64,000 bases of DNA from Escherichia phage vB_EcoM-673R5: the sequence record ON470615.2; one strand, written 5' to 3'. Made by a program: the position numbers and the translations under genes. Below the pieces are notes generated by a model. That model saw nothing but the letters and a program-made list of their open reading frames with translations, made no database searches and was not told where the DNA came from. This document shows, in pieces, positions 5,355 to 38,833 of the stretch; positions within the stretch are counted from its first letter, which is position 1, and every line of letters begins with the position of its first letter.

Positions 5355-6386
5355 ATGTCCAATTTACTGACCGTACACCAAAATTTGCCTGCATTACCGG
5401 TCGATGCAACGAGTGATGAGGTTCGCAAGAACCTGATGGACATGTTCAGGGATCGCCAGGCGTTTTCTGAGCATACCTGGAAAATGCTTCTGTCCGTTTG
5501 CCGGTCGTGGGCGGCATGGTGCAAGTTGAATAACCGGAAATGGTTTCCCGCAGAACCTGAAGATGTTCGCGATTATCTTCTATATCTTCAGGCGCGCGGT
5601 CTGGCAGTAAAAACTATCCAGCAACATTTGGGCCAGCTAAACATGCTTCATCGTCGGTCCGGGCTGCCACGACCAAGTGACAGTAATGCTGTTTCACTGG
5701 TCATGCGACGGATCCGAAAAGAAAACGTTGATGCCGGTGAACGTGCAAAACAGGCACTGGCGTTCGAACGCACTGATTTCGACCAGGTTCGTTCACTCAT
5801 GGAAAATAGCGATCGCTGCCAGGATATACGTAATCTGGCATTTCTGGGGATTGCTTATAACACCCTATTACGTATAGCCGAAATTGCCAGGATCAGGGTT
5901 AAAGATATCTCACGTACTGACGGTGGGAGAATGTTAATCCATATTGGCAGAACGAAAACGCTGGTTAGCACCGCAGGTGTAGAGAAGGCACTTAGCCTGG
6001 GGGTAACTAAACTGGTCGAGCGATGGATTTCTGTCTCTGGTGTGGCTGATGATCCGAATAACTACTTGTTTTGCCGTGTCAGAAAAAATGGTGTTGCCGC
6101 GCCATCTGCCACCAGCCAGCTATCAACTCGCGCCCTGGAAGGGATTTTTGAAGCAACTCATCGATTGATTTACGGCGCTAAGGATGACTCTGGTCAGAGA
6201 TACCTGGCCTGGTCTGGACACAGTGCCCGTGTCGGAGCCGCGCGAGATATGGCCCGCGCCGGAGTTTCAATACCGGAGATCATGCAAGCTGGTGGCTGGA
6301 CCAACGTAAATATTGTCATGAACTATATCCGTAACCTGGATAGTGAAACGGGGGCAATGGTGCGCCTGCTGGAAGATGGCGATTAG
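5355..6386 (+). CDS. cre: Cre tyrosine site-specific recombinase
   Basis: 343-aa ORF starting MSNLLTVHQNLPALPVDATSDEVRKNLMDMFRDRQAFSEHTWKMLLSVCRSWAAWCKLNNRKWFPAEPEDVRDYLLYLQARGLAV; adjacent to loxP. Confidence 0.97.
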   Translation: MSNLLTVHQNLPALPVDATSDEVRKNLMDMFRDRQAFSEHTWKMLLSVCRSWAAWCKLNNRKWFPAEPEDVRDYLLYLQARGLAVKTIQQHLGQLNMLHRRSGLPRPSDSNAVSLVMRRIRKENVDAGERAKQALAFERTDFDQVRSLMENSDRCQDIRNLAFLGIAYNTLLRIAEIARIRVKDISRTDGGRMLIHIGRTKTLVSTAGVEKALSLGVTKLVERWISVSGVADDPNNYLFCRVRKNGVAAPSATSQLSTRALEGIFEATHRLIYGAKDDSGQRYLAWSGHSARVGAARDMARAGVSIPEIMQAGGWTNVNIVMNYIRNLDSETGAMVRLLEDGD

Positions 6387-7736: not shown

Positions 7737-7988
7737 ATGGATAAGAAAATATGCGTTGTGTCGATGAGCGTCGGCAAACCGGCGTCAATGACTGCTGCAT
7801 GGATCAATAACGAGCTGATAATGGCTGAGCGGACCAGCTACCCTGAACGCCGCCGCGATATGGAACTCCAGCTGCTGCGCGAATTGCGAGAAAAAGAGGA
7901 AAAGGGTTTTATCGTGCTGGTGGAAGAGGAAAACAGCTTTATTACTGGTCGAGTTGGCCAGCGTGTAAGGTTGCGCGATCCTTCATGA
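7737..7988 (+). CDS. hypothetical 83-aa protein (P1 mat position)
   Basis: ORF downstream of late-promoter box; stop overlaps next start (ATGA at 7985-7988). Confidence 0.45.
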   Translation: MDKKICVVSMSVGKPASMTAAWINNELIMAERTSYPERRRDMELQLLRELREKEEKGFIVLVEEENSFITGRVGQRVRLRDPS

Positions 7989-8353
7989 ACGGCAGGCCGG
8001 TACTAATTGAGGCAATGCAGATTTATAAGGAGCTGGAACGCCAGAAAGCAATCAAGTTACCGCGCAAGGAATCCGGCAAATACATTCTCCACCAAAGCAT
8101 CTTCGATTCCGAACACGATAAAAAAGGCGATGAATTTTTCAACATCAACTGGAGCGAAATAACGACAGAGCATGTTCTGACGTTACTATGTTGCTTTGCG
8201 ACGGAATACAACAACGTTGCCAGCGCCGACTACATCAGGGCAATGGCTGGAGAAGTTGAGGCCCGCCAAGAACCATCGTTACTAAGTCCACTGATTAACA
8301 TAATTCTGGGCACCCAGATACTGGAACAAAAAAAGTGCCGAAAGGGGTATTAA
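7985..8353 (+). CDS. hypothetical 122-aa protein
   Basis: ORF translationally coupled to 7737-7988; no recognisable motif. Confidence 0.45.
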   Translation: MNGRPVLIEAMQIYKELERQKAIKLPRKESGKYILHQSIFDSEHDKKGDEFFNINWSEITTEHVLTLLCCFATEYNNVASADYIRAMAGEVEARQEPSLLSPLINIILGTQILEQKKCRKGY

Positions 8354-8469
8354 CAGGCAAGCATAATTATTTTTAACAATTACATACAGTAATTTTGTGG
8401 TTACATTCTCCATTGATTTTCTAACCGCTTTATCATTAGATGTAACAGCATGTAAATCATTTAAAATGG

Positions 8470-9578
8470 ATGAAAGCAATGGGGAATGAAGTTTATCAAA
8501 GTCAAAAATGCAAGTTGAAATATTCAAAATCTCAAATTGATAGGGCTGCTCAATTGATAAGGCACGGGTGTAGTGACGAAGAAAGGCAGCAATCTATTGA
8601 AATGATACAAAATTTCCGTGAGCTGCATCTTTATCCATTAATGCTCATGAAAAATCATTTAGCAAGAGCAGCTGCTAAGGTTGACAAGGACAAAAAGATT
8701 CTCGTTGCAAGAAGACTTAAGCGACTTTCTACCATAATAGATAAACTAGAGCGTCCTAGTCTTGATGGAGGCAGAACTAGCAATGCAATTAAATTAACAC
8801 GGATGCAGGACGTTGGCGGATGTAGGGCCATTGTCAGAAACTTAGACCAGTTGATACAGCTAAAGGAACGTCTTTTAAAAAGCAAATCTGTTCATAGGAT
8901 TGTTAAAGAGTATGATTATCTTACTCCCAAAGACAGCGGCTATAGTGGAATCCACCTTGCATACAGTTGCTTCGATCAGAAGAGGATCAATATCCGTGGC
9001 GAAAAACAAAGATTGAGATACAGTTAAGAACTCAATTGCAGCATGCTTGGGCTACCAGCCTTGAAATAATTGATACCCTTGAAGGTATCAAGCTGAAAAC
9101 TTCAAGTGAAGGGCATCCAGAATGGAGACGATTTTTCTATCTAGCCGGATGTCTTGTAGCGCACGACGAAAAAGCCTGCACTCTTGATGAGCTAGTTGTA
9201 TCTCAGTATGAAGGCGAGCTTAAAGAGCTGGAACGGACTTTATCTGTACGGAGGAAACTAAGCACATACACCATCGCCTTAAATTTAACTTCTGACGCGA
9301 ATTTGATTAAGAAGTTGCCAAAAAATCATAAGGGGCATTACTTAGTAACAATGAGAAATGCAGAAAACAAGCCCAATACAAAAAACAAAAAAATGTTCCT
9401 AGTGTCTGTTCGCGCATTTAAAACAAAAGAAGCAGATGAAGCCCTTGAGGCCTTAAATAAAGACGATTCTAATCCTAATGTATTGATATCTGTTCTCGTT
9501 GCTACAGATAACATTAAGTCACTAAAAAAGCCTACCCCAACTATTTTGGCTCAACAAACCAGTTTACAAAATTCTTAG
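8470..9578 (+). CDS. fused RelA/SpoT-domain toxin (toxSAS, CapRel-like); frame broken once in an A5 run near 9005
   Basis: ORFs 8470-9027 and 8967-9578 join to about 369 aa; RelA/SpoT synthetase motifs (DVGGCRAIV, GYSGIHLAY, EIQLRTQLQHAWA); AT-rich vs flanks. Confidence 0.65.
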
Positions 9579-9610
9579 ATAAGCATCTTCGTAACGAAGG
9601 ATAGTTGCTT

Positions 9611-9640
9611 AATTTTGCCCGGTAATTCCGGGCAAAATTG
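9611..9640. terminator. bidirectional intrinsic terminator
   Basis: TTTTGCCCGG-taatt-CCGGGCAAAA 10-bp perfect stem with A/T tracts on both sides, between convergent genes. Confidence 0.6.
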
Positions 9641-9889
9641 TCAATCTGCATTCAGGAGCAATGCGTTATCTATGATGATCTGCTCCCATTCTTCGAATGC
9701 CCGATCGCGGACGCCCTGGGGAACACTGTTAGTTTTGAAATCGACCACCGTCCGCCATTTCCCGTCCGGGCGGTACATGCGCAGAGCTTTACTTCCCCCT
9801 TCCCTGCGCACCTCAACGTTATGCTTATCAGCAAACTCTTGTAATGCTCGTAGCGTCCCATGCTTTACTGTGTAGTATCGCTTTTTCAA
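9641..9889 (-). CDS. 82-aa protein, Lxc/Bof-like by size and position
   Basis: 82-aa ORF downstream of darB operon genes; P1 lxc(bof) is 82 aa at the equivalent map position. Confidence 0.4.
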   Translation of the reverse strand: MKKRYYTVKHGTLRALQEFADKHNVEVRREGGSKALRMYRPDGKWRTVVDFKTNSVPQGVRDRAFEEWEQIIIDNALLLNAD

Positions 9890-18924: not shown

Positions 18925-20150
18925 CAAACATTCCCAATTCACAGAGTCCGACCTAAACCACATGAAGCGGCTTAGGAATTACAGACTCTCCAAGGGCTAA
19001 CACTGCCAGCCCGGCAGCTTTTATATTACGGGCCGCGTTAATATCACGATCATGCTCTGCGCCACATTCCGGGCAGTGCCATTTACGAATATTAAGAGGC
19101 ATTTTTTGCATGGTGAAGCCGCAACTGCTGCAACGTTTGGAAGAAGGGAAATACTGGTCGATAGCGACAATGCTACGTCCACCCCATTCTCCTTTGTACT
19201 GGAGTTGGCGTACAAGTTCGCTCCAGCCTGCGTCAGCTATTGCTTTAGACAGCTTCGGGTTACGGATCATGTTTTTCACTTTAAGGGATTCGACGCAAAC
19301 AACTTGGTTTTCGTTAATCAGTTTGCGGGACAACTTATGCAGGTTATCCATCCGACAATCGACTATTCTCGCGTGGAGGCGGGCAACCTTTAAACGTGCT
19401 TTGGCGCGGTTCTTTGAGCCTTTTTGTTTCTTGCTCAATCTGCGCTGTAACACTGCTAATCGCTTCGCGTATTTAGCGTTGTGTCGAGGATTGCCAGTTT
19501 TAAAACCGGTATCGGTGACGAACAAATCTTTTAAACCAATATCAATGCCGACCGTGGAAACGGTGATCGGCAGTGATACAGGCTCAAACTCGCAGAGACA
19601 GGATACAAAATATCGTCCGGCAGCATCCCCTGGTGATAGTGACAGTGGATGGAGCAGACGGCAACGGACGGCTCCAGCGAACATCTAACGGCTCTTTGCT
19701 CTTTGCCATGTACAGCTTGCCGTCACGGTATTTAAATGCGCTGGCAGTTAGTTCTGCGGCCTGTTTATGCCGCTTGCTCTTAAAAACTGGGTATGCAGCA
19801 CGCCCGGCGAAAAAGTTAGCAAAAGCCGTTTGTTGGTGGCGCAGAGACTGCTGGAGGGGGACGCAGGAAACGTCATTCAGCCAAGCGAATTCTGGTTCTT
19901 TTTCAGTGCCGTTAATTTGGCGCTGGCTTGTGCATAGCCGACCCTCTCATGGCGTGCGTAGTACGCATCGGTGCGCCAGCGAAGGAGGCTGTTATAGACA
20001 AAACGCACACACCCAAAAGTCCGGGCTAATAGCTCGGTTTGTTCGGGAGTTGGATAGAATCGATATTTATAGGCACGCTTCATGTTCTATATAATACATT
20101 GAAACTAATGAGTATATAAATGAATACACGGACGAAAATGTTATCAAAGC
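18925..20150 (-). mobile_element. IS200/IS605-family element carrying tnpB only
   Basis: tnpB fills the interval between portal stop (18920) and protease start (20196); no tnpA; ends not mapped. Confidence 0.5.
18953..20083 (-). CDS. tnpB: TnpB (OrfB) of IS200/IS605 family; frameshifted
   Basis: N-terminus MKRAYKYRFYPTPEQTELLARTFGCVRFVYNSLL; C-terminal zinc-finger region (CSSCG...WHCPECGAEHDRDINAARNI). Confidence 0.7.
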
Positions 20151-22962: not shown

Positions 22963-24316
22963 ATGACACACTGCAAAGAAAATACTTGGTATGAGCGTCA
23001 AGGGTACAATACCACCCGCCCGAATGAGATAAGGTCGGAGTATGAACGTGATCTTTCCCGGTTAATCCACTCTTCCGCTTTTAGGAGATTACAATCGAAG
23101 ACGCAGGTGTTGGGATTGGGCGAAAGCGATTTCTACCGTACGCGGCTAACTCACTCTATGGAAGTAGCGCAAATTGGCGGCGGTATCTTGTCTCAGTTGT
23201 CTAAGCGCGATACAGATGAGGGGGTAAATTCTTACCTGACCCAAGCCTGATGCAGGCTATCTGCCTTGCTCATGATATAGGACATCCCCCTTCGGTCATG
23301 GTGGTGAGGTCGCACTAAACTACTGCATGAGATCCTATGGCGGCTTTGAAGGTAACGGGCAGACACTGCGTATACTCTCCAAACTGGATAAGTACACCGA
23401 AACCAATGGGCTGGATCCCACCCGTAGACTTATTTTAGGCGTACTGAAATATCCAGCAAGCTATTCAGAGGTCGTCAATGAGAGGGCTTACAGCCAGTTA
23501 CAGCCAAGAAGCAATGAGTGGTTGTTTAAATCATCCGAATTTAAGCCCCCGAAATGTTACCTGGACTCTGAGGAGAACACTGTTAGATTCGCACTCCAAC
23601 CTTTTGATAGTGATGATGTTAAGTTATTCAAAACGGTAAAAACTACCGCGTTGAATAAGCACAAGGAAACAATATATAAAGCACTGGATACAACGATTAT
23701 GGACTTGGCTGATGAGATATCCTACTCACTCCATGATCTTGAAGACGCAATTTCTCTGAAGATGATCGACAAAAAAATGTGGGAGGAGCACTTCGAGGAC
23801 AAATCCCATTTATTTGCAGCTTGCCAATGCGACTCGTTTAATCTAAAAGCCGATGATGTAGCTGAAAAACTGTTCGGCGAAAGTTATCTACGCAAGGAGT
23901 GCATAGGGACACTTGTTCATCTGATGATCACTAGCGTTAAGCTTGAAGTGCAGAACTCTGATTTCAAAAGTAAAATTTTACGCTATAAAGTGGCACTTCC
24001 TGCCGCGGTAGAAGAGTTACGTAAAGCCATTTTTGAGCTGGTTAGGAACAAAGTTATTCAGCACGAAAACGTCCAACTATTAGAGTTCAAAGGTCAGAAA
24101 CTGATTGTGGAACTATTCAATGTACTGGCAAATGACCCAATACGTTTTCTCCCGACAGAAACTCGAAAGAAATATAATCAAGAGGAAGCAAAAGGTGATG
24201 ATAAAAAAATGCGTGTCATTTGCGACTATGTTTCAGGCATGACAGATGATTACGCTACTCGACTGTATGAGAAAATATTTGTACCGAGAAAAGGCTCTAT
24301 TTTTGATAGACTCTGA
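22963..24316 (+). CDS. dGTPase-family HD phosphohydrolase (dGTP triphosphohydrolase-like); one frameshift near 23250
   Basis: Motifs [24 protein letters not shown] and [15 protein letters not shown] typical of Dgt-type HD hydrolases; ORFs 22864-23250 and 23327-24316; lower GC than backbone. Confidence 0.65.
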
Positions 24317-32804: not shown

Positions 32805-33385
32805 TTACAGCTCAGATTGAGTTTGGCGCTTCTCTACAGGATGATAACGATAAATCGTCGATACACCGATATCGTAAATAATTGCCAACTGTTTCCTGCT
32901 GTAGCCATTTTCGATCAACCTCGCTATTTGCTCATGTTGTTCTTTTGTCAACTTCGGGCGACGTCCGCCAATGCGTCCCTGTTCGCGTGCAGCTGCCAGT
33001 CCGGCCAGTGTTCTCTCAACAATTAATTCACGTTCCATTTCTGCTAAAGCCCCCATGACGTGAAAAAGAAACGCCCCATGGGTGTTGATGTGTCAATACT
33101 GTCTGTCAGACTACGGAAATTAACACCTTTTTCCCGCAACTCCTCTATAAGCGTGATAAGGTGTTTCATACTTCTGCCAAGCCTATCCAGCTTCCAGACA
33201 ACCAGCGTATCTCCTTCTGATAACGTTCTGAGCAGCTTTTTCAAGCCTGGTCTGGCTGACTTTGTTCCGCTTATTTTATCTTCAAAAATCAGTTCACATC
33301 CTGCGCAGTTCAGTGCATTTCTTTGTAAATCTGTGTTTTGGTCATTTGTTGACACACGAATGTAGCCAATTTGCATGAAAAACAA
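32805..33385 (-). CDS. cin: Cin-family serine DNA invertase; one frameshift near 33050
   Basis: MQIGYIRVSTNDQNTDLQ...GDTLVVWKLDRLGRS catalytic domain plus C-terminal HTH (SRKQLAIIYDIGVSTIYRY); ORFs 33044-33385 and 32805-33056. Confidence 0.8.
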
Positions 33386-33435
33386 CCTCTTTGTTTAGTT
33401 AAAAATACATCGTTGGTATAGGTAGGGATTAAGAC

Positions 33436-33457
33436 TAAAACGTTGGTTTGGGGAAGG
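33436..33457 (+). repeat. cix-like crossover site 1
   Basis: TAAAACGTTGGTTTGGGGAAGG; imperfect dyad around central TT. Confidence 0.5.
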
Positions 33458-33875
33458 CTCTGCACTGCCCGTTGGCGTGCCCGTTCCGTGGCCATCAGCC
33501 ACACCTCCAACGGGGTGGCTGAAATGCAATGGCGCAGCATTTTCTTCTGAAAAGTACCCAAATCTGGCAAAGGTTTACCCCACTAATAAATTGCCGGATC
33601 TACGGGGCGAATTTATTCGTGGCTGGGATGACGGACGAGGTGTGGACAATGGGCGAGCATTATTAAGCAGCCAAGAGGCTACAAACTTTTCTCAGTGTGC
33701 CGGAAATATAGGCAATGGTGCGGGGCACGCAATTAATTTTCATGATGGCATCGTCGGAAATCAGCCAGGATTTTCACGATTTAATTTCACCAGTAACTCT
33801 GTAGGTGATGGTATAAATTTTGTTGCTGTCAGGCCGCGAAATATCGCATTTAATTACATCGTAAGGGCGGCATAA
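33458..33875 (+). CDS. tail-fibre variable C-terminal cassette Sv-a (promoterless)
   Basis: GEGSALPVGVPVPWPSATPPTGWLKCNGAAFSSEKYPNLAK...RPRNIAFNYIVRAA; stop abuts next site. Confidence 0.5.
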
Positions 33876-33893
33876 AAACGTTGGTTTGGGGGA
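33872..33893 (+). repeat. cix-like crossover site 2
   Basis: AAAAACGTTGGTTTGGGGGAAGG. Confidence 0.5.
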
Positions 33894-34366
33894 AGGCTCT
33901 GCATTGCCTGTTGGCGTACCTGTTCCGTGGCCCTCAGCCACACCTCCAACGGGGTGGCTGAAATGCAATGGTGCAGCATTTTCTTCTGAAAAGTACCCAA
34001 ATCTGGCAAAGGCTTATCCCACCAATAAATTACCGGATTTACGGGAGAATTTATTCGCGGCTGGGATGATGGGCGCGGGTGGATGCGGGCCTACGGGGTC
34101 GTGCTTTATTGAGCATTCAGACAGGAATGCTGGAAAAGCATCGACATATTGTTGTAGCCAATGATGGTTACGACACAAAGATGAATGGGAGCTGGCGACA
34201 ATTTTCAAAAAACATACACACAAGGATGGGGACTTGATGCCACAAATACAGGAGGGAGTCTGATCCCATCACCGACACTTCATTCACGAGGAGTATCGGT
34301 AATACTGGCGGGAGTGAAACCCGTCCACGAAATATCGCATTTAATTATATCGTAAGGGCGGCATAA
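33894..34366 (+). CDS. tail-fibre variable cassette Sv-b; frameshifted
   Basis: Same conserved N-block; ends ...GGSETRPRNIAFNYIVRAA; indel in a GGG run near 34045. Confidence 0.45.
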
Positions 34367-34384
34367 AAACGTTGGTTTGGGAGA
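34363..34384 (+). repeat. cix-like crossover site 3
   Basis: AAAAACGTTGGTTTGGGAGAAGG. Confidence 0.5.
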
Positions 34385-34854
34385 AGGCTCTGCATTACCT
34401 GTTGGTGTCCCTGTTCCGTGGCCTTCAGCCACACCTCCAACGGGGTGGCTGAAATGCAATGGTGCAGCATTTTCTTCTGAAAAGTACCCAAATCTGGCAA
34501 AGGCTTACCCGACAAATAAATTGCCTGATTTACGTGGTGAGTTCATTCGTGGCTGGGATGACGGGCGCGGGATTGATCCGGGGTCGCTCTATTTTAAGCG
34601 AGCAAGGATATGCAACGGAGGATCATGCTCACGGATTACCGTCAAAATCAACCGTAGCAACTGACAGCTCAATTAATTTCTACTTTGACGAGGCATGGGC
34701 TACTAGTGGTAATACGGGAGTTATCAGATGGGGGAACACAAGCGATGCAGGATTGCCAGCCCCTAATTATGGAACTTTTAAAACATATAAACAGTCCGTA
34801 GCTAATTTAGGTACTGCTGGCTTAGAAACCCGCCCTCGTAATAGCCACATTTAA
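34385..34854 (+). CDS. tail-fibre variable cassette Sv-c; frameshifted
   Basis: ORFs 34377-34664 and 34459-34854; ends ...LETRPRNSHI, followed by degenerate site remnant. Confidence 0.45.
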
Positions 34855-34902
34855 TTATATTGTGAGGGCGGATTATATCAACTGGCTGTAGAAAGTTGTT
34901 TT

Positions 34903-35522
34903 TCAGGCCAGTTGAGATACCCAAATGGTTAAATCCATCGCGTTCAGCTCGTCTATATAATCTAGCACGGAGTTAAGCTGCGTGGTTTCTGCCTGCGTCA
35001 ACTTCCGTCCAGCCCGTAATTTCAACTGAATCAGACTAATGGAATCCATCGCAGTATCAATCAATGACTGACGTTTTGTTTCTGCTGTACTCCCTCGTGA
35101 ATGAAGTGTCGGTGATGGGATCAATCTACAGCTGCACTATGTTGAGCCTCAGTATCAACCACCCATTTCTCTCCATCCCATTTGTCGTATGGTGTTAGCG
35201 GGGCGATAGTGGTTGTATTTTCCGGATAGTCGCCCCAACACCGTGATTTCTTCGGGATTCCCTGTGTCAATGCTATAGACAGTTTCGCCACGATGATCTG
35301 GCACATACTCCCATGAACTTAAATCCTCTGAACGGAGAATCGCATAACCTGCTTTATGTGAACTGGAGCATCAAACAAGAATGTGCCGGAATACCAACGA
35401 ATAACAGCAAGATATTCAGTTGATGCAGAAATATATTCCCGATTACCACCATCATAGTTATAAACGATAATGTTTCCTGCCTGTATGGCTATAAGTTCGC
35501 TATTTAATATCGCATTATCCAT
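34903..35522 (-). CDS. U: tail-fibre assembly chaperone U (Tfa family); frameshifted
   Basis: Tfa-like ...KWDGEKWVVDTEAQHSAAVD and C-terminus ...LIQLKLRAGRKLTQAETTQLNSVLDYIDELNAMDLTIW; three ORF pieces. Confidence 0.6.
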
Positions 35523-35524
35523 TA

Positions 35525-35967
35525 TGCTGCTCTCACAATATAATTGAAGGCATGTTACGTGGGCGGGTTTCATTCCCCCAGATAACTCCGTTCTGTATTG
35601 ACTGGTAAATTTACCATTAATCGCTCCTTCTTGGACGGCGTTATCTGTCGACAACAGGCTATCCCCCCTCTGTCATTTGGCACCAATACCGTGTTATCCC
35701 ACGCGTCCCATGACCGAATATTATGATAATGACTTCCTGTTAACCACCCCTGTATGCTTAAGATGACCCTTCCCGCATCCACACCGCGCCCATCATCCCA
35801 ACCACGGATAAACTCACCGCGTAAATCAGGTAATTTTAACGTTGGGTAAACCTTTGCCAGATTTGGGTACTTTTCAGAAGAAAATGCTGCGCCATTGCAT
35901 TTCAGCCACCCCGTTGGAGGTGTGGCTGATGGCCACGGAACGGGCACGCCAACGGGCAGTGCAGAGC
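35525..35967 (-). CDS. tail-fibre variable cassette Sv-d
   Basis: MPVPWPSATPPTGWLKCNGAAFSSEKYPNLAKVYPTLKLPDLRGEFIRGWDDGRGVD...; directly upstream of U. Confidence 0.45.
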
Positions 35968-35990
35968 CTTCCCCAAACCAACGTTTTCAT
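35968..35990 (-). repeat. cix-like crossover site 4
   Basis: Minus strand GAAAACGTTGGTTTGGGGAAGG. Confidence 0.5.
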
Positions 35991-36009
35991 GCCGCCCTTA
36001 CGATATAAT

Positions 36010-38833
36010 TAAACGCATATGTTACGAGGACGAATGGTTACATAATTAACCCCATCACCTCGTGAAGGCCCTAAATGAAAAACGGGAAAATCCTGGTTGG
36101 TAGAAACAATTTGGTCATAGTTATTGATTGAATGACCAGACCCAATGTCGAAATTACCTCCGTAATGAGAAAAACTTTACCATCCTGCCCTGAAAGCTTA
36201 AAATAGACGTCCCGCATCAATCCCGCGCCCATCATCCCAGCCACGGATAAATTCACCGCGTAAATCCGGTAATTTATTGGTGGGGTAAGCCTTTGCCAGA
36301 TTTGGGTACTTTTCAGAAGAAAATGCTGCTCCATTACATTTCAGCCAGCCCGTTGGAGGTGTTTCTGAGGGCCACGGAACGGGCACACCAACAGGCAGTG
36401 CAGAGCCTTCCCCAAACCAAGGTAATTAAGAACGCTCTGAATACTGGGCTTACTAAGAATTGCACGTCCAACACTTGTCAGTGCAGTTAACGCGGCACGA
36501 TCAACCCCTGTGAAATAAGGGAGTTTATCTGCTGCGGTAGCTAGTGCCGCTAGAGCAGTGAGCGTAGCGTCTGCCGCTTGCTTTCCATTAGCCAAATCAT
36601 ATGCAGCCTTGACAGCTTTCGGTGTAGCGGCCAGCACTTCAGACGTGCTGTTAGTGGCACTACTGAGCTGAGTGATGCCTTTCGCTGTCAATGAAGCTGT
36701 TGGCACACCAGTGATCTGATTCGGGGATGTGTATGACTGGATGGTGCCTTTCCGGCTGCTAGATCGTATGCAGCTTTAACTGCTTTTGGCGTTGCAGCTA
36801 ATGTTTCAGAAGTGCTGTTGGTGTCGCTACTGAGCTGAACTATCCCTTTTTGTGTCGTGGTTGCATCCTGGGCTGTATACTTCCCGTTAGCCAGGTCATA
36901 TGCAGCCTTGACAGCTTTCGGTGTGGCGGCCAGCACTTCAGACGTGCTGTTAGTGGCACTACTGAGCTGAGTGATGCCTTTCGCTGTCAATGAAGCTGTT
37001 GGCACACCAGTGATCTGATTCAGGGATGTGTATGACTGGATGGTGCCTTTCCGGCTGCTAGATCGTATGCAGCTTTAACCGCTTTTGGCGTTGCAGCTAA
37101 TGTTTCAGAAGTGCTGTTGGTGTCGCTACTGAGCTGAACTATCCCTTTTTGTGTCGTGGTTGCATCCTGGGCTGTATACTTCCCGTTAGCCAGGTCATAT
37201 GCAGCCTTGACAGCTTTCGGTGTGGCGGCCAGCACTTCAGACGTGCTGTTAGTGGCACTACTGAGCTGAGTGATGCCTTTCGCTGTCAATGAAGCTGTTG
37301 GCACACCAGTAATCTGATTCCAGGGATGTGTATGACTGGATGGTGCTTTTTCGGCTGCTAGATCGTATGCAGCTTTAACCGCTTTTGGCGTTGCAGCTAA
37401 TGTTTCAGAAGTGCTGTTGGTGTCGCTACTGAGCTGAACTATCCCTTTTTGTGTCGTGGTTGCATCCTGGGCTGTATACTTCCCGTTAGCCAGGTCATAT
37501 GCAGCCTTGACAGCTTTCGGTGTGGCGGCCAGCACTTCAGACGTGCTGTTAGTGGCACTACTGAGCTGAGTGATGCCTTTCGCTGTCAATGAAGCTGTTG
37601 GCACACCAGTGATCTGATTCCAGGGATGTGTATGACTGGATGGTGCCTTTCCGGCTGCTAGATCGTATGCAGCTTTAACCGCTTTTGGCGTTGCAGCTAA
37701 TGTTTCAGAAGTGCTGTTGGTGTCGCTACTGAGCTGAACTATCCCTTTTTGTGTCGTGGTTGCATCCTGGGCTGTATACTTCCCGTTAGCCAGGTCATAT
37801 GCAGCCTTGACAGCTTTCGGTGTGGCGGCCAGCACTTCAGACGTGCTGTTAGTGGCACTACTGAGCTGAGTGATGCCTTTCGCTGTCAATGAAGCTGTTG
37901 GCACACCAGTGATCTGATTCAGGGATGTGTATGACTGGATGGTGCCTTTCCGGCTGCTAGATCGTATGCAGCTTTAACCGCTTTTGGCGTTGCAGCTAAT
38001 GTTTCAGAAGTGCTGTTGGTGTCGCTACTGAGCTGAACTATCCCTTTTTGTGTCGTGGTTGCATCCTGGGCTGTATACTTCCCGTTAGCCAGGTCATATG
38101 CAGCCTTGACAGCTTTCGGTGTGGCGGCCAGCACTTCGGACGTACTGTTAGTGGCACTACTGAGCTGAACTAATCCCTTTTGCGTTGTGCTTGCATCCTG
38201 CGCCGTATACTTGCTTTTCGCCAGATCGTAGGCTTTTTTAACTGCCAGCGAACTCGCAGCAACATCACTTCTGGTACTGGTTACAGAGTCTGAAATATCA
38301 ATGCCGATCGTGCGGTTGATACGCTCGGATGTATCAATCATCTCTTGAGTAATGGTAGATACGCCAGCAGGGATATTCACCGTACAAACCAGCAGTTCCC
38401 CATCACCTAACTGATATGAATCGGTATAGGTTCTGGCAACAAATTCAGCTGCATGAATATGTGACGCGGTATTCACCTGATAGGTATCTTCTCCAAGAAG
38501 GTATCTTCCCTTCAGCACAATTGCATATTTCTTGCCTGCGTTAAGTGCAAGAGAGATATCCTTACGATGCTGAATAGTTACCTGGTAGAATTCACCAATA
38601 TCCACTGACGCCGCGCCAGCGGTTTTATCTCCATCCACTGAGGTGATTAACAGGTTCATCCCACCGCCAGGCTTAGGCAAGAAACCAGCATAAAATCCCG
38701 GGTCAACAATTCCCCTGAATTTTCGGTTTAGAGCGGCTGACAGATATGGTTCGTGGTATTGCACATCAGCCACCAGAGCCAACGACTCGGGTGATGGGTA
38801 AGTAACCGATGTAACAACTGTAACGTCATTCAT
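36010..38833 (-). CDS. S: tail fibre protein S (constant part plus currently joined Sv-e cassette); several frameshifts in repeats
   Basis: Starts MNDVTVVTSVTYPSPESLALVADVQYHEPYL; contains 100-aa tandem repeats; joins cassette at site 5; ORFs 37919-38920, 37020-37904, 36688-37005, 36341-36706, 36198-36386. Confidence 0.7.
36408..36430 (-). repeat. cix-like crossover site 5 (Sc/Sv junction)
   Basis: Minus strand TTACCTTGGTTTGGGGAAGG. Confidence 0.5.
36575..38250 (-). repeat. tandem 300-bp coding repeats (about 5 copies) inside S
   Basis: Unit ...GTGATCTGATTC(C)AGGGATGTGTATGACTGGATGGTGCC... recurs at 36710, 37005, 37305, 37605, 37905; encodes repeated TASLTAKGITQLSSATNSTSEVLAATPKAVKAAYDLA motif. 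Confidence 0.75.

Follow-up and report, generated by a model that had tools for sequence, protein, structure and literature searches.

A CapRel-family fused toxSAS gene in the mat-lxc slot of a P1-like phage-plasmid, with frame breaks that probably stem from the assembly

Which gene occupies the interval between mat and lxc in the P1-like element deposited as Escherichia phage vB_EcoM-673R5 (ON470615.2), and is this gene as defective as its sequence makes it appear? The stretch of DNA analyzed, hereafter the window, is 64,000 nucleotides long. It is part of a P1-like phage-plasmid, with cre at 5355..6386 and with c1, ref, mat, lxc, ulx, and darB assigned from the annotation of a near-identical plasmid. 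The segment between mat and lxc corresponds to the slot in which P1 carries res/mod. In the window, it most likely contains a copy of a CapRel-family defense gene that is functional in reality and broken only in the assembly, and that forms a self-contained, AT-rich cassette (Table 1).

Table 1. Features of the capRel cassette and its flanks. Positions are nucleotides of the window or, where marked aa, residues of the 375-aa protein.
Feature	Position	Strand	Remarks
mat (maturation control) homologue, left flank	7737..8376	+	Mapped from the intact 213-aa WP_023351534.1 of NZ_CP103764
capRel upstream region, 102 bp	8377..8478	+	83% identical to the SJ46 upstream region
Candidate sigma-70 promoter	TTGATT 8413-8418, N17, TTAGAT 8436-8441		Recognized by eye; its sole support is conservation with SJ46
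GGA(T)G Shine-Dalgarno-like element	8468-8472
capRel allele, fused toxSAS toxin-antitoxin	8479..9604	+	Repaired product is WP_000526244.1, 375 aa
toxSYNTH domain	aa ~1-235
Anchor-1 and pseudo-ZFD sensor	aa ~236-340
Anchor-2 with YPNY auto-inhibition motif	YPNY at aa 353-356
Frame break 1	8980..8982	+	One A lost, A3 to A2, CAGAAAGAGG to CAGAAGAGG; from the alignment to p1540-3 and the indel list
Frame break 2	9524..9530	+	One A lost, A7 to A6; from the alignment and the indel list
Cassette-specific hairpin AAUUUUGCCCGG-UAAUU-CCGGGCAAAAUU	9610..9640		Abuts the lxc stop codon
lxc (modulator of C1), right flank	9641..9889	-

Identity of the gene

As the sequence is written, two overlapping open reading frames are found on the + strand in different frames (8470..9027 and 8967..9578). 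A preliminary description of this DNA had recognized in them a gene of the RelA/SpoT type, and the motifs on which it relied, DVGGCRAIV, GYSGIHLAY, and EIQLRTQLQHAWA, are all present in the translations. The N-terminal fragment by itself matches the Pfam family RelA_SpoT (E = 3.8e-7). When three missing A's are restored in the aligned 1.4 kb, the capRel product equals the RefSeq protein WP_000526244.1, which is labeled "RelA/SpoT domain-containing protein." With this repaired protein, the score for RelA_SpoT (PF04607) is 47.4 bits vs. a cut-off of 27, and the match covers aa 79-193.

The further proposal, a fused toxSAS belonging to the CapRel family, was also supported. The repaired protein aligns end to end with CapRel-SJ46 of Salmonella phage SJ46 (J46_0058); in BLASTP, 371 aa are aligned with one gap, and of these 74% are identical and 87% positive. 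Among all PDB chains, phmmer retrieved the structures of CapRel-SJ46 as best matches (7ZTB_A, E = 4.6e-185, aa 1-371 vs. 1-370; 9ERV_A, ~1e-185), and the matches that came next were small alarmone synthetases at 1e-8. The two proteins have the same domain order and nearly the same length (375 aa in the window vs. 373 aa). PADLOC 2.0 has no model named CapRel; its candidate family PDC-S33 matches the window and SJ46 alleles with equal strength.

In CapRel-SJ46, the roles of individual residues were tested: R79, R116, and Y155 serve catalysis, A77, V338, L339, A341, A351, Y352, and Y355 auto-inhibition, and L280 and L307 the opening of the protein and its response to capsid (Zhang et al., 2022; PMC9712102). 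All twelve are identical in the window allele in the pairwise alignment, where the interface residues are numbered A77, V339, L340, A342, and A352. In 36 homologues, with identities down to 54%, R79, R116, Y155, E180, Q182, R184, and the YPNY motif are invariant, A77 is conserved in at least 90%, and the interface residues are either invariant or conserved in at least 90%. The YPNY motif is out of frame in the sequence as written and comes into frame once the A7 run is restored.

An AF2 model of the repaired protein (pLDDT 79.8) has the toxSYNTH fold followed by a beta-beta-alpha-beta C-terminal domain, with strands at 286-294, 307-315, and 335-343; the second and third strands flank a helix at 316-330. 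The best Foldseek matches of this model are again 9ERV and 7ZTB, with TM scores of 0.69-0.75. The model deviates from these crystal structures by 9-10 Å rmsd, which suggests a closed vs. an open arrangement of the domains. Judged by sequence and by predicted structure, the protein is a member of the CapRel family on every count considered.

Origin of the frame breaks and alternative readings

Two single-A deletions deprive the sequence as given of an uninterrupted capRel reading frame. The first break affects codon 168, between the G-loop residue Y155 and the EIQLRT strand, and the second affects codons K350-K351, directly before the YPNY motif. Read literally, the sequence interrupts the open reading frame at codon 168, shifts the YXXY motif into another frame, and encodes no functional protein. 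The third missing A is located inside mat (A8 to A7 at ~8328), and these three A's are the only differences from p1540-3 over the capRel region, where substitutions are absent. On this point the preliminary description needs correction. It had reported a single, possibly real break in an A5 run near 9005; that run (9003-9007) is unchanged relative to intact copies, and two breaks are found elsewhere, i.e., A3 to A2 at ~8980 and A7 to A6 at ~9524. As the second of these was overlooked, a product of ~369 aa with the false C-terminus ...PTPTILAQQTSLQNS was proposed, whereas the actual protein of 375 aa ends in ...KKAYPNYFGSTNQFTKFLDKHLRNEG, with its stop codon at 9602-9604. Similarly, the start coordinate 8354 that had been given follows a false mat stop that results from the deletion at ~8328; capRel starts at 8479. 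The mat gene is broken by homopolymer deletions at ~7980 and ~8328, and its true stop codon is at 8374-8376.

The quality of the assembly was assessed by aligning positions 1-33400 of the window with the closest plasmid, NZ_CP103764. The alignment contains 5 substitutions, 4 insertions, and 39 deletions, and all 39 deletions are in homopolymer runs. The deletion rate per run is 0.1% for runs of length 2, 5.5% for length 5, and 37-44% for lengths 6-7. The frame is broken in 16 of the 31 reference CDSs in this part of the window, including c1 (with 4 indels), ref, mat, darB, tnpB, and the genes for a dGTPase, a lysozyme, and tail proteins. So many broken genes beside only 5 substitutions in effect rule out natural frameshifts and mark the breaks as artefacts of the assembly. 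Thus, the frame breaks in capRel have very probably arisen by systematic under-calling of homopolymers. None of the capRel indels of the window is present in the other copies among the 30 plasmid and 30 genome matches listed, which are 99.7-99.8% identical and extend over 1404 bp, vs. 1401 bp in the window. Since the breaks are attributed to the assembly, they leave the functional call on capRel unaffected. By the same token, any pseudogene, frameshift, or split gene found in this stretch should be discounted unless it has been checked against a polished relative. Eleven more single-base deletions were noticed between 37479 and 47883.

Taken at face value, the two breaks in the sequence as given would describe a decayed pseudogene, in which the toxin is inactivated at codon 168 and the element has lost this defense. 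Decay of this kind has precedents, as truncated or disrupted copies are present in a few natural plasmids, such as NZ_CP070916 (86% coverage), NZ_CP103610 (76%, with two annotated CDSs), and AP024695 (49%); genuine disruption of this allele does happen elsewhere. For the window, we nevertheless regard a pseudogene as improbable. The single-base losses are spread over the 16 broken genes of the first 33 kb, among them c1, the lysozyme gene, and tail genes, all required by a P1-like element that is active or maintained. The scarcity of substitutions and the steep increase of the loss rate with run length form the pattern of a base caller rather than of selection or drift, and the indels are absent from the database copies listed. 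Moreover, a genuine second break would cost the protein its auto-inhibitory motif, and by itself this would be expected to leave the toxin constitutively active, which casts further doubt on the reality of that break. The location of both breaks in A-runs also brings to mind a regulatory device, i.e., programmed ribosomal or transcriptional slippage or phase variation, by which the toxin would be kept low or switchable. In E. coli, tRNA-Lys is known to slip on A-rich sites, and a low expression of a toxin is plausible. Yet, the runs have their in-frame lengths in all other copies inspected, the first site (A2/A3) is too short for either mechanism, the frame would have to be compensated twice independently, and the artefact that pervades the window accounts for both sites with no extra assumption. 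Programmed frameshifting and phase variation at the A-runs were rejected on these grounds and have only a negligible probability.

A different question is whether the repaired protein, in spite of its family relationship, acts on nucleotide pools as a small alarmone synthetase or a (pp)pApp-making toxSAS, or serves as a plasmid-addiction module, rather than being a phage-sensing tRNA pyrophosphokinase. The generic annotations "RelA/SpoT domain-containing protein" and "GTP pyrophosphokinase" would fit such a role, the only NCBIfam match is the YjbM GTP diphosphokinase, and the next-best structural neighbors are the SAS enzymes RelQ and RelP. The NCBIfam match is weak, though; its 35.9 bits are far below the cut-off of 320. 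Identity to the SAS enzymes is ~20%, vs. 74% to CapRel-SJ46, and the C-terminal sensor and YXXY module, which these enzymes lack, is complete in the window allele. In addition, the fusion of toxin and antitoxin would be incompatible with classical post-segregational killing, which depends on differential decay of two proteins. An alarmone synthetase or addiction module is therefore very improbable here. The bicistronic toxSAS systems, such as PhRel/ATphRel of mycobacteriophage Phrann and FaRel2/ATfaRel2, resemble the window allele in their toxin with a RelA/SpoT fold, which blocks translation by pyrophosphorylation of the tRNA CCA end. [quoted passage not shown]

The mat-lxc slot and expression of the cassette

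The location of the gene between mat and lxc, in the slot of P1 res/mod, was confirmed by comparison with P1, RCS47, JL22, and SJ46. The slot is bordered by the genes cre-c8-ref-mat and, at its other end, by lxc-ulx-darB. The mat homologue is annotated as a maturation control protein in SJ46 and RCS47. When the junctions are aligned, homology of the backbone stops near the 3' end of mat and restarts exactly at the stop codon of lxc. The content of the slot differs between the elements. In P1, res/mod plus IS5 are present on the other strand, and in SJ46 the order is mat-capRel-lxc. RCS47 has no gene in the slot; 39 bp separate mat from lxc there. JL22 has an unrelated gene for a hypothetical protein of 315 aa (L006, 3510-4460, - strand). 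The C-terminus of this protein weakly matches the candidate defense family PDC-S34 in PADLOC (E = 1.4e-11), and it may constitute another defense cargo of the slot.

The cassette (8377-9640) is indeed AT-rich, as had been remarked earlier: its GC content is 0.38, vs. 0.476 for the window and ~0.50 for the flanks, and the open reading frame has a GC content of 0.39 in the window and 0.37 in SJ46. Together with the empty slot in RCS47 and the unrelated gene in JL22, these data support the reading of the mat-lxc interval as an exchangeable defense cassette, which the preliminary description had put forward. Thus, the interval in P1 and its relatives can be considered an exchangeable defense slot with at least five states, i.e., a type III restriction-modification system, two CapRel alleles, a PDC-S34-like gene, and the empty state. 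EcoP1I of P1 shares with the window allele both this slot and a function in defense of the lysogen against other phages, but the proteins and their mechanism are unrelated, and res/mod with IS5 takes up ~6.2 kb on the opposite strand, vs. 1.26 kb for the single-gene cassette of the window.

A strong bidirectional terminator had been claimed at the end of the cassette. A stable hairpin is present there, with a perfect 10-bp core, a dG of -21.8 and -18.4 kcal/mol on the two strands, and a z-score of ~-4.4. The polarity on both strands is U4-stem-A4, which is the reverse of that in a canonical bidirectional terminator. As a 3' U-tract is missing from the hairpin in either direction, and as a terminator scan made no call, its function as a strong bidirectional terminator is unproven. 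Each state of the slot that was compared has a different, unrelated GC-rich hairpin immediately next to the stop codon of lxc (~5975-6000 of L002 in SJ46, ~3472-3492 of L005 in RCS47, and ~4480-4515 of L006 in JL22); hence, also in this respect, the capRel cassette of SJ46 is different from that of the window.

At the other end of the cassette, a scan for promoter and terminator consensus sequences yielded no promoter in 8377-8478. A search for C1 operators revealed no site between 6895 and 17053. Native expression of CapRel was obtained from 100-200 bp of upstream DNA (Zhang et al., 2022; PMC9712102). Considering the sufficiency of such a short segment, the similarity of the upstream region to that of SJ46, and the lack of a C1 operator nearby, constitutive expression in the lysogen is a reasonable inference.

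Divergence of the sensor and the question of the trigger

The mechanism of CapRel-SJ46 has been described in detail (PMC9712102, Nature 2022; PMC11578894, 2024). Pyrophosphorylation of tRNA and sensing of capsid were shown biochemically (PMC9712102), and the known triggers are the major capsid protein of the SECphi27 type and Gp54 of Bas11 (PMC9712102; PMC11578894). For the window allele, we infer enzymatic activity, abortive phenotype, and expression by analogy. Given its 74% identity to CapRel-SJ46, the 375-aa protein would be made constitutively in the lysogen and would adopt a closed, auto-inhibited state, with the ATP site between R79 and R116 blocked by the YXXY motif (Y353/Y356) of the C-terminal part. 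A protein of a superinfecting phage would then bind the hypervariable anchor/pseudo-ZFD sensor (aa ~236-340) and keep the enzyme open. In this state, toxSYNTH would pyrophosphorylate the 3' CCA ends of tRNAs, upon which translation would halt and the infection would be aborted. Sibling cells carrying the P1-like element would thus be protected.

The preliminary description had surmised that the C-terminal half may differ from that of SJ46, and this is correct in degree. Identity is 77% for aa 1-272 and 63% for the part of the sensor that was exchanged in chimeras (270-339), where it drops to 53% at 286-330. Correspondingly, the sensor has a dN of 0.31 between the two alleles and the toxin domain one of 0.15, and the mean column entropy across homologues is 2.0 bits for aa 236-340 vs. 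0.72 for aa 71-200. This variability is consistent with the published picture of a fast-evolving sensor. At the nucleotide level, the alleles are 69% identical, and dN/dS between them is uninformative, since synonymous sites are saturated (pS 0.85). Several residues of CapRel-SJ46 that contact Gp54 of Bas11 (PMC11578894) are different in the window allele, i.e., K269N, S279K, and RKKE to KTKE at 314-317.

A homologue from Enterobacter chengduensis, CapRel-Ebc, shows how far sensing can diverge within the family. Like the window allele, it is a fused protein with a toxSYNTH, pseudo-ZFD, and anchor architecture and with the same catalytic tyrosine logic, and the two have diverged from SJ46 to a similar extent (70% identity for CapRel-Ebc and 74% for the window allele, both relative to SJ46). 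Its C-terminal domain shares 47% identity with the one in SJ46 and recognizes an unrelated trigger: CapRel-Ebc senses Gp0.4 of T7 together with FtsZ, and its authors warn against transferring triggers between homologues (Nat Microbiol 2026; PMC13423816). Consequently, family membership gives no guide to what triggers the window allele. It is conceivable, and we suggest it tentatively, that this trigger is unrelated to those of SJ46 and consists of another structural protein or, as in CapRel-Ebc, of a phage protein plus a host factor. If so, carriers of the window allele would have a different spectrum of phage exclusion. As part of the same tentative reading, the window allele might be the commonest CapRel of the P1-like phage-plasmids of E. 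coli.

The two alleles are clearly separated in natural populations. At the mat-lxc locus in PLSDB, these two alone are found, with 52 records at 95% identity or more, 22 records at 74%, and no intermediates. The window allele is an old, discrete one. In PLSDB, it outnumbers the SJ46 allele about two to one, and the protein clusters have 313 and 122 members, respectively. With megablast, it was detected at 80% query coverage or more in ~50 PLSDB plasmids and in 77 of 5,426 complete E. coli genomes. Among the INPHARED phages, megablast matched the lxc flank alone, the allele being absent at the DNA level, and tblastn against deposited phage genomes retrieved only that of SJ46 (74%). Possibly, the locus has retained two discrete alleles since each has to escape activation by the capsid of its own P1-like element while covering different competitors. 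Identity of the window allele with CapRel-EcHT (Zhang et al., 2022) was considered and rejected, as the window allele ranked with the least similar of 30 homologues in a tblastn search against the gBlocks of the supplement; the sequence text used is truncated and has OCR errors, which makes the percentages rough.

The family, its mechanism, and its location on P1-like elements are already known, with SJ46 as the type example, and the exact protein is already in RefSeq. A literature search on the accession WP_000526244.1 yielded no paper naming it. The allele is, thus, an uncharacterized member of a known family, and it has little biological significance, enlarging the set of natural CapRel alleles by one, albeit a frequent one. 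Since its sensor shares 63% identity with the sensor of the SJ46 protein, which has been studied well, it does offer a convenient natural variant for mapping the relation between sensor sequence and trigger specificity.

In a survey of clinical Enterobacteriaceae in 2025, CapRel and dGTPase were reported as common defenses of the P1-like phage-plasmids of E. coli, and the window carries both. Its second defense gene (~22963-24316, + strand) is a homologue of the "anti-phage deoxyguanosine triphosphatase" WP_000148486.1 of the near-identical plasmid and is broken here by two homopolymer indels. Downstream of darB, at ~18953-20083 on the - strand, a gene is found for an RNA-guided endonuclease TnpB of the IS200/IS605 type (WP_001312284.1 in the relative). 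This gene is separated from darB by a hypothetical gene of 573 aa and is also broken by two indels. Finally, clustered mismatches and rearranged or inverted matches to NZ_CP103764 are observed at 33400-37500, adjoining a cin-like recombinase gene (~32805-33376); this region presumably represents the invertible C-segment of the tail fibers with its variable S and U genes.
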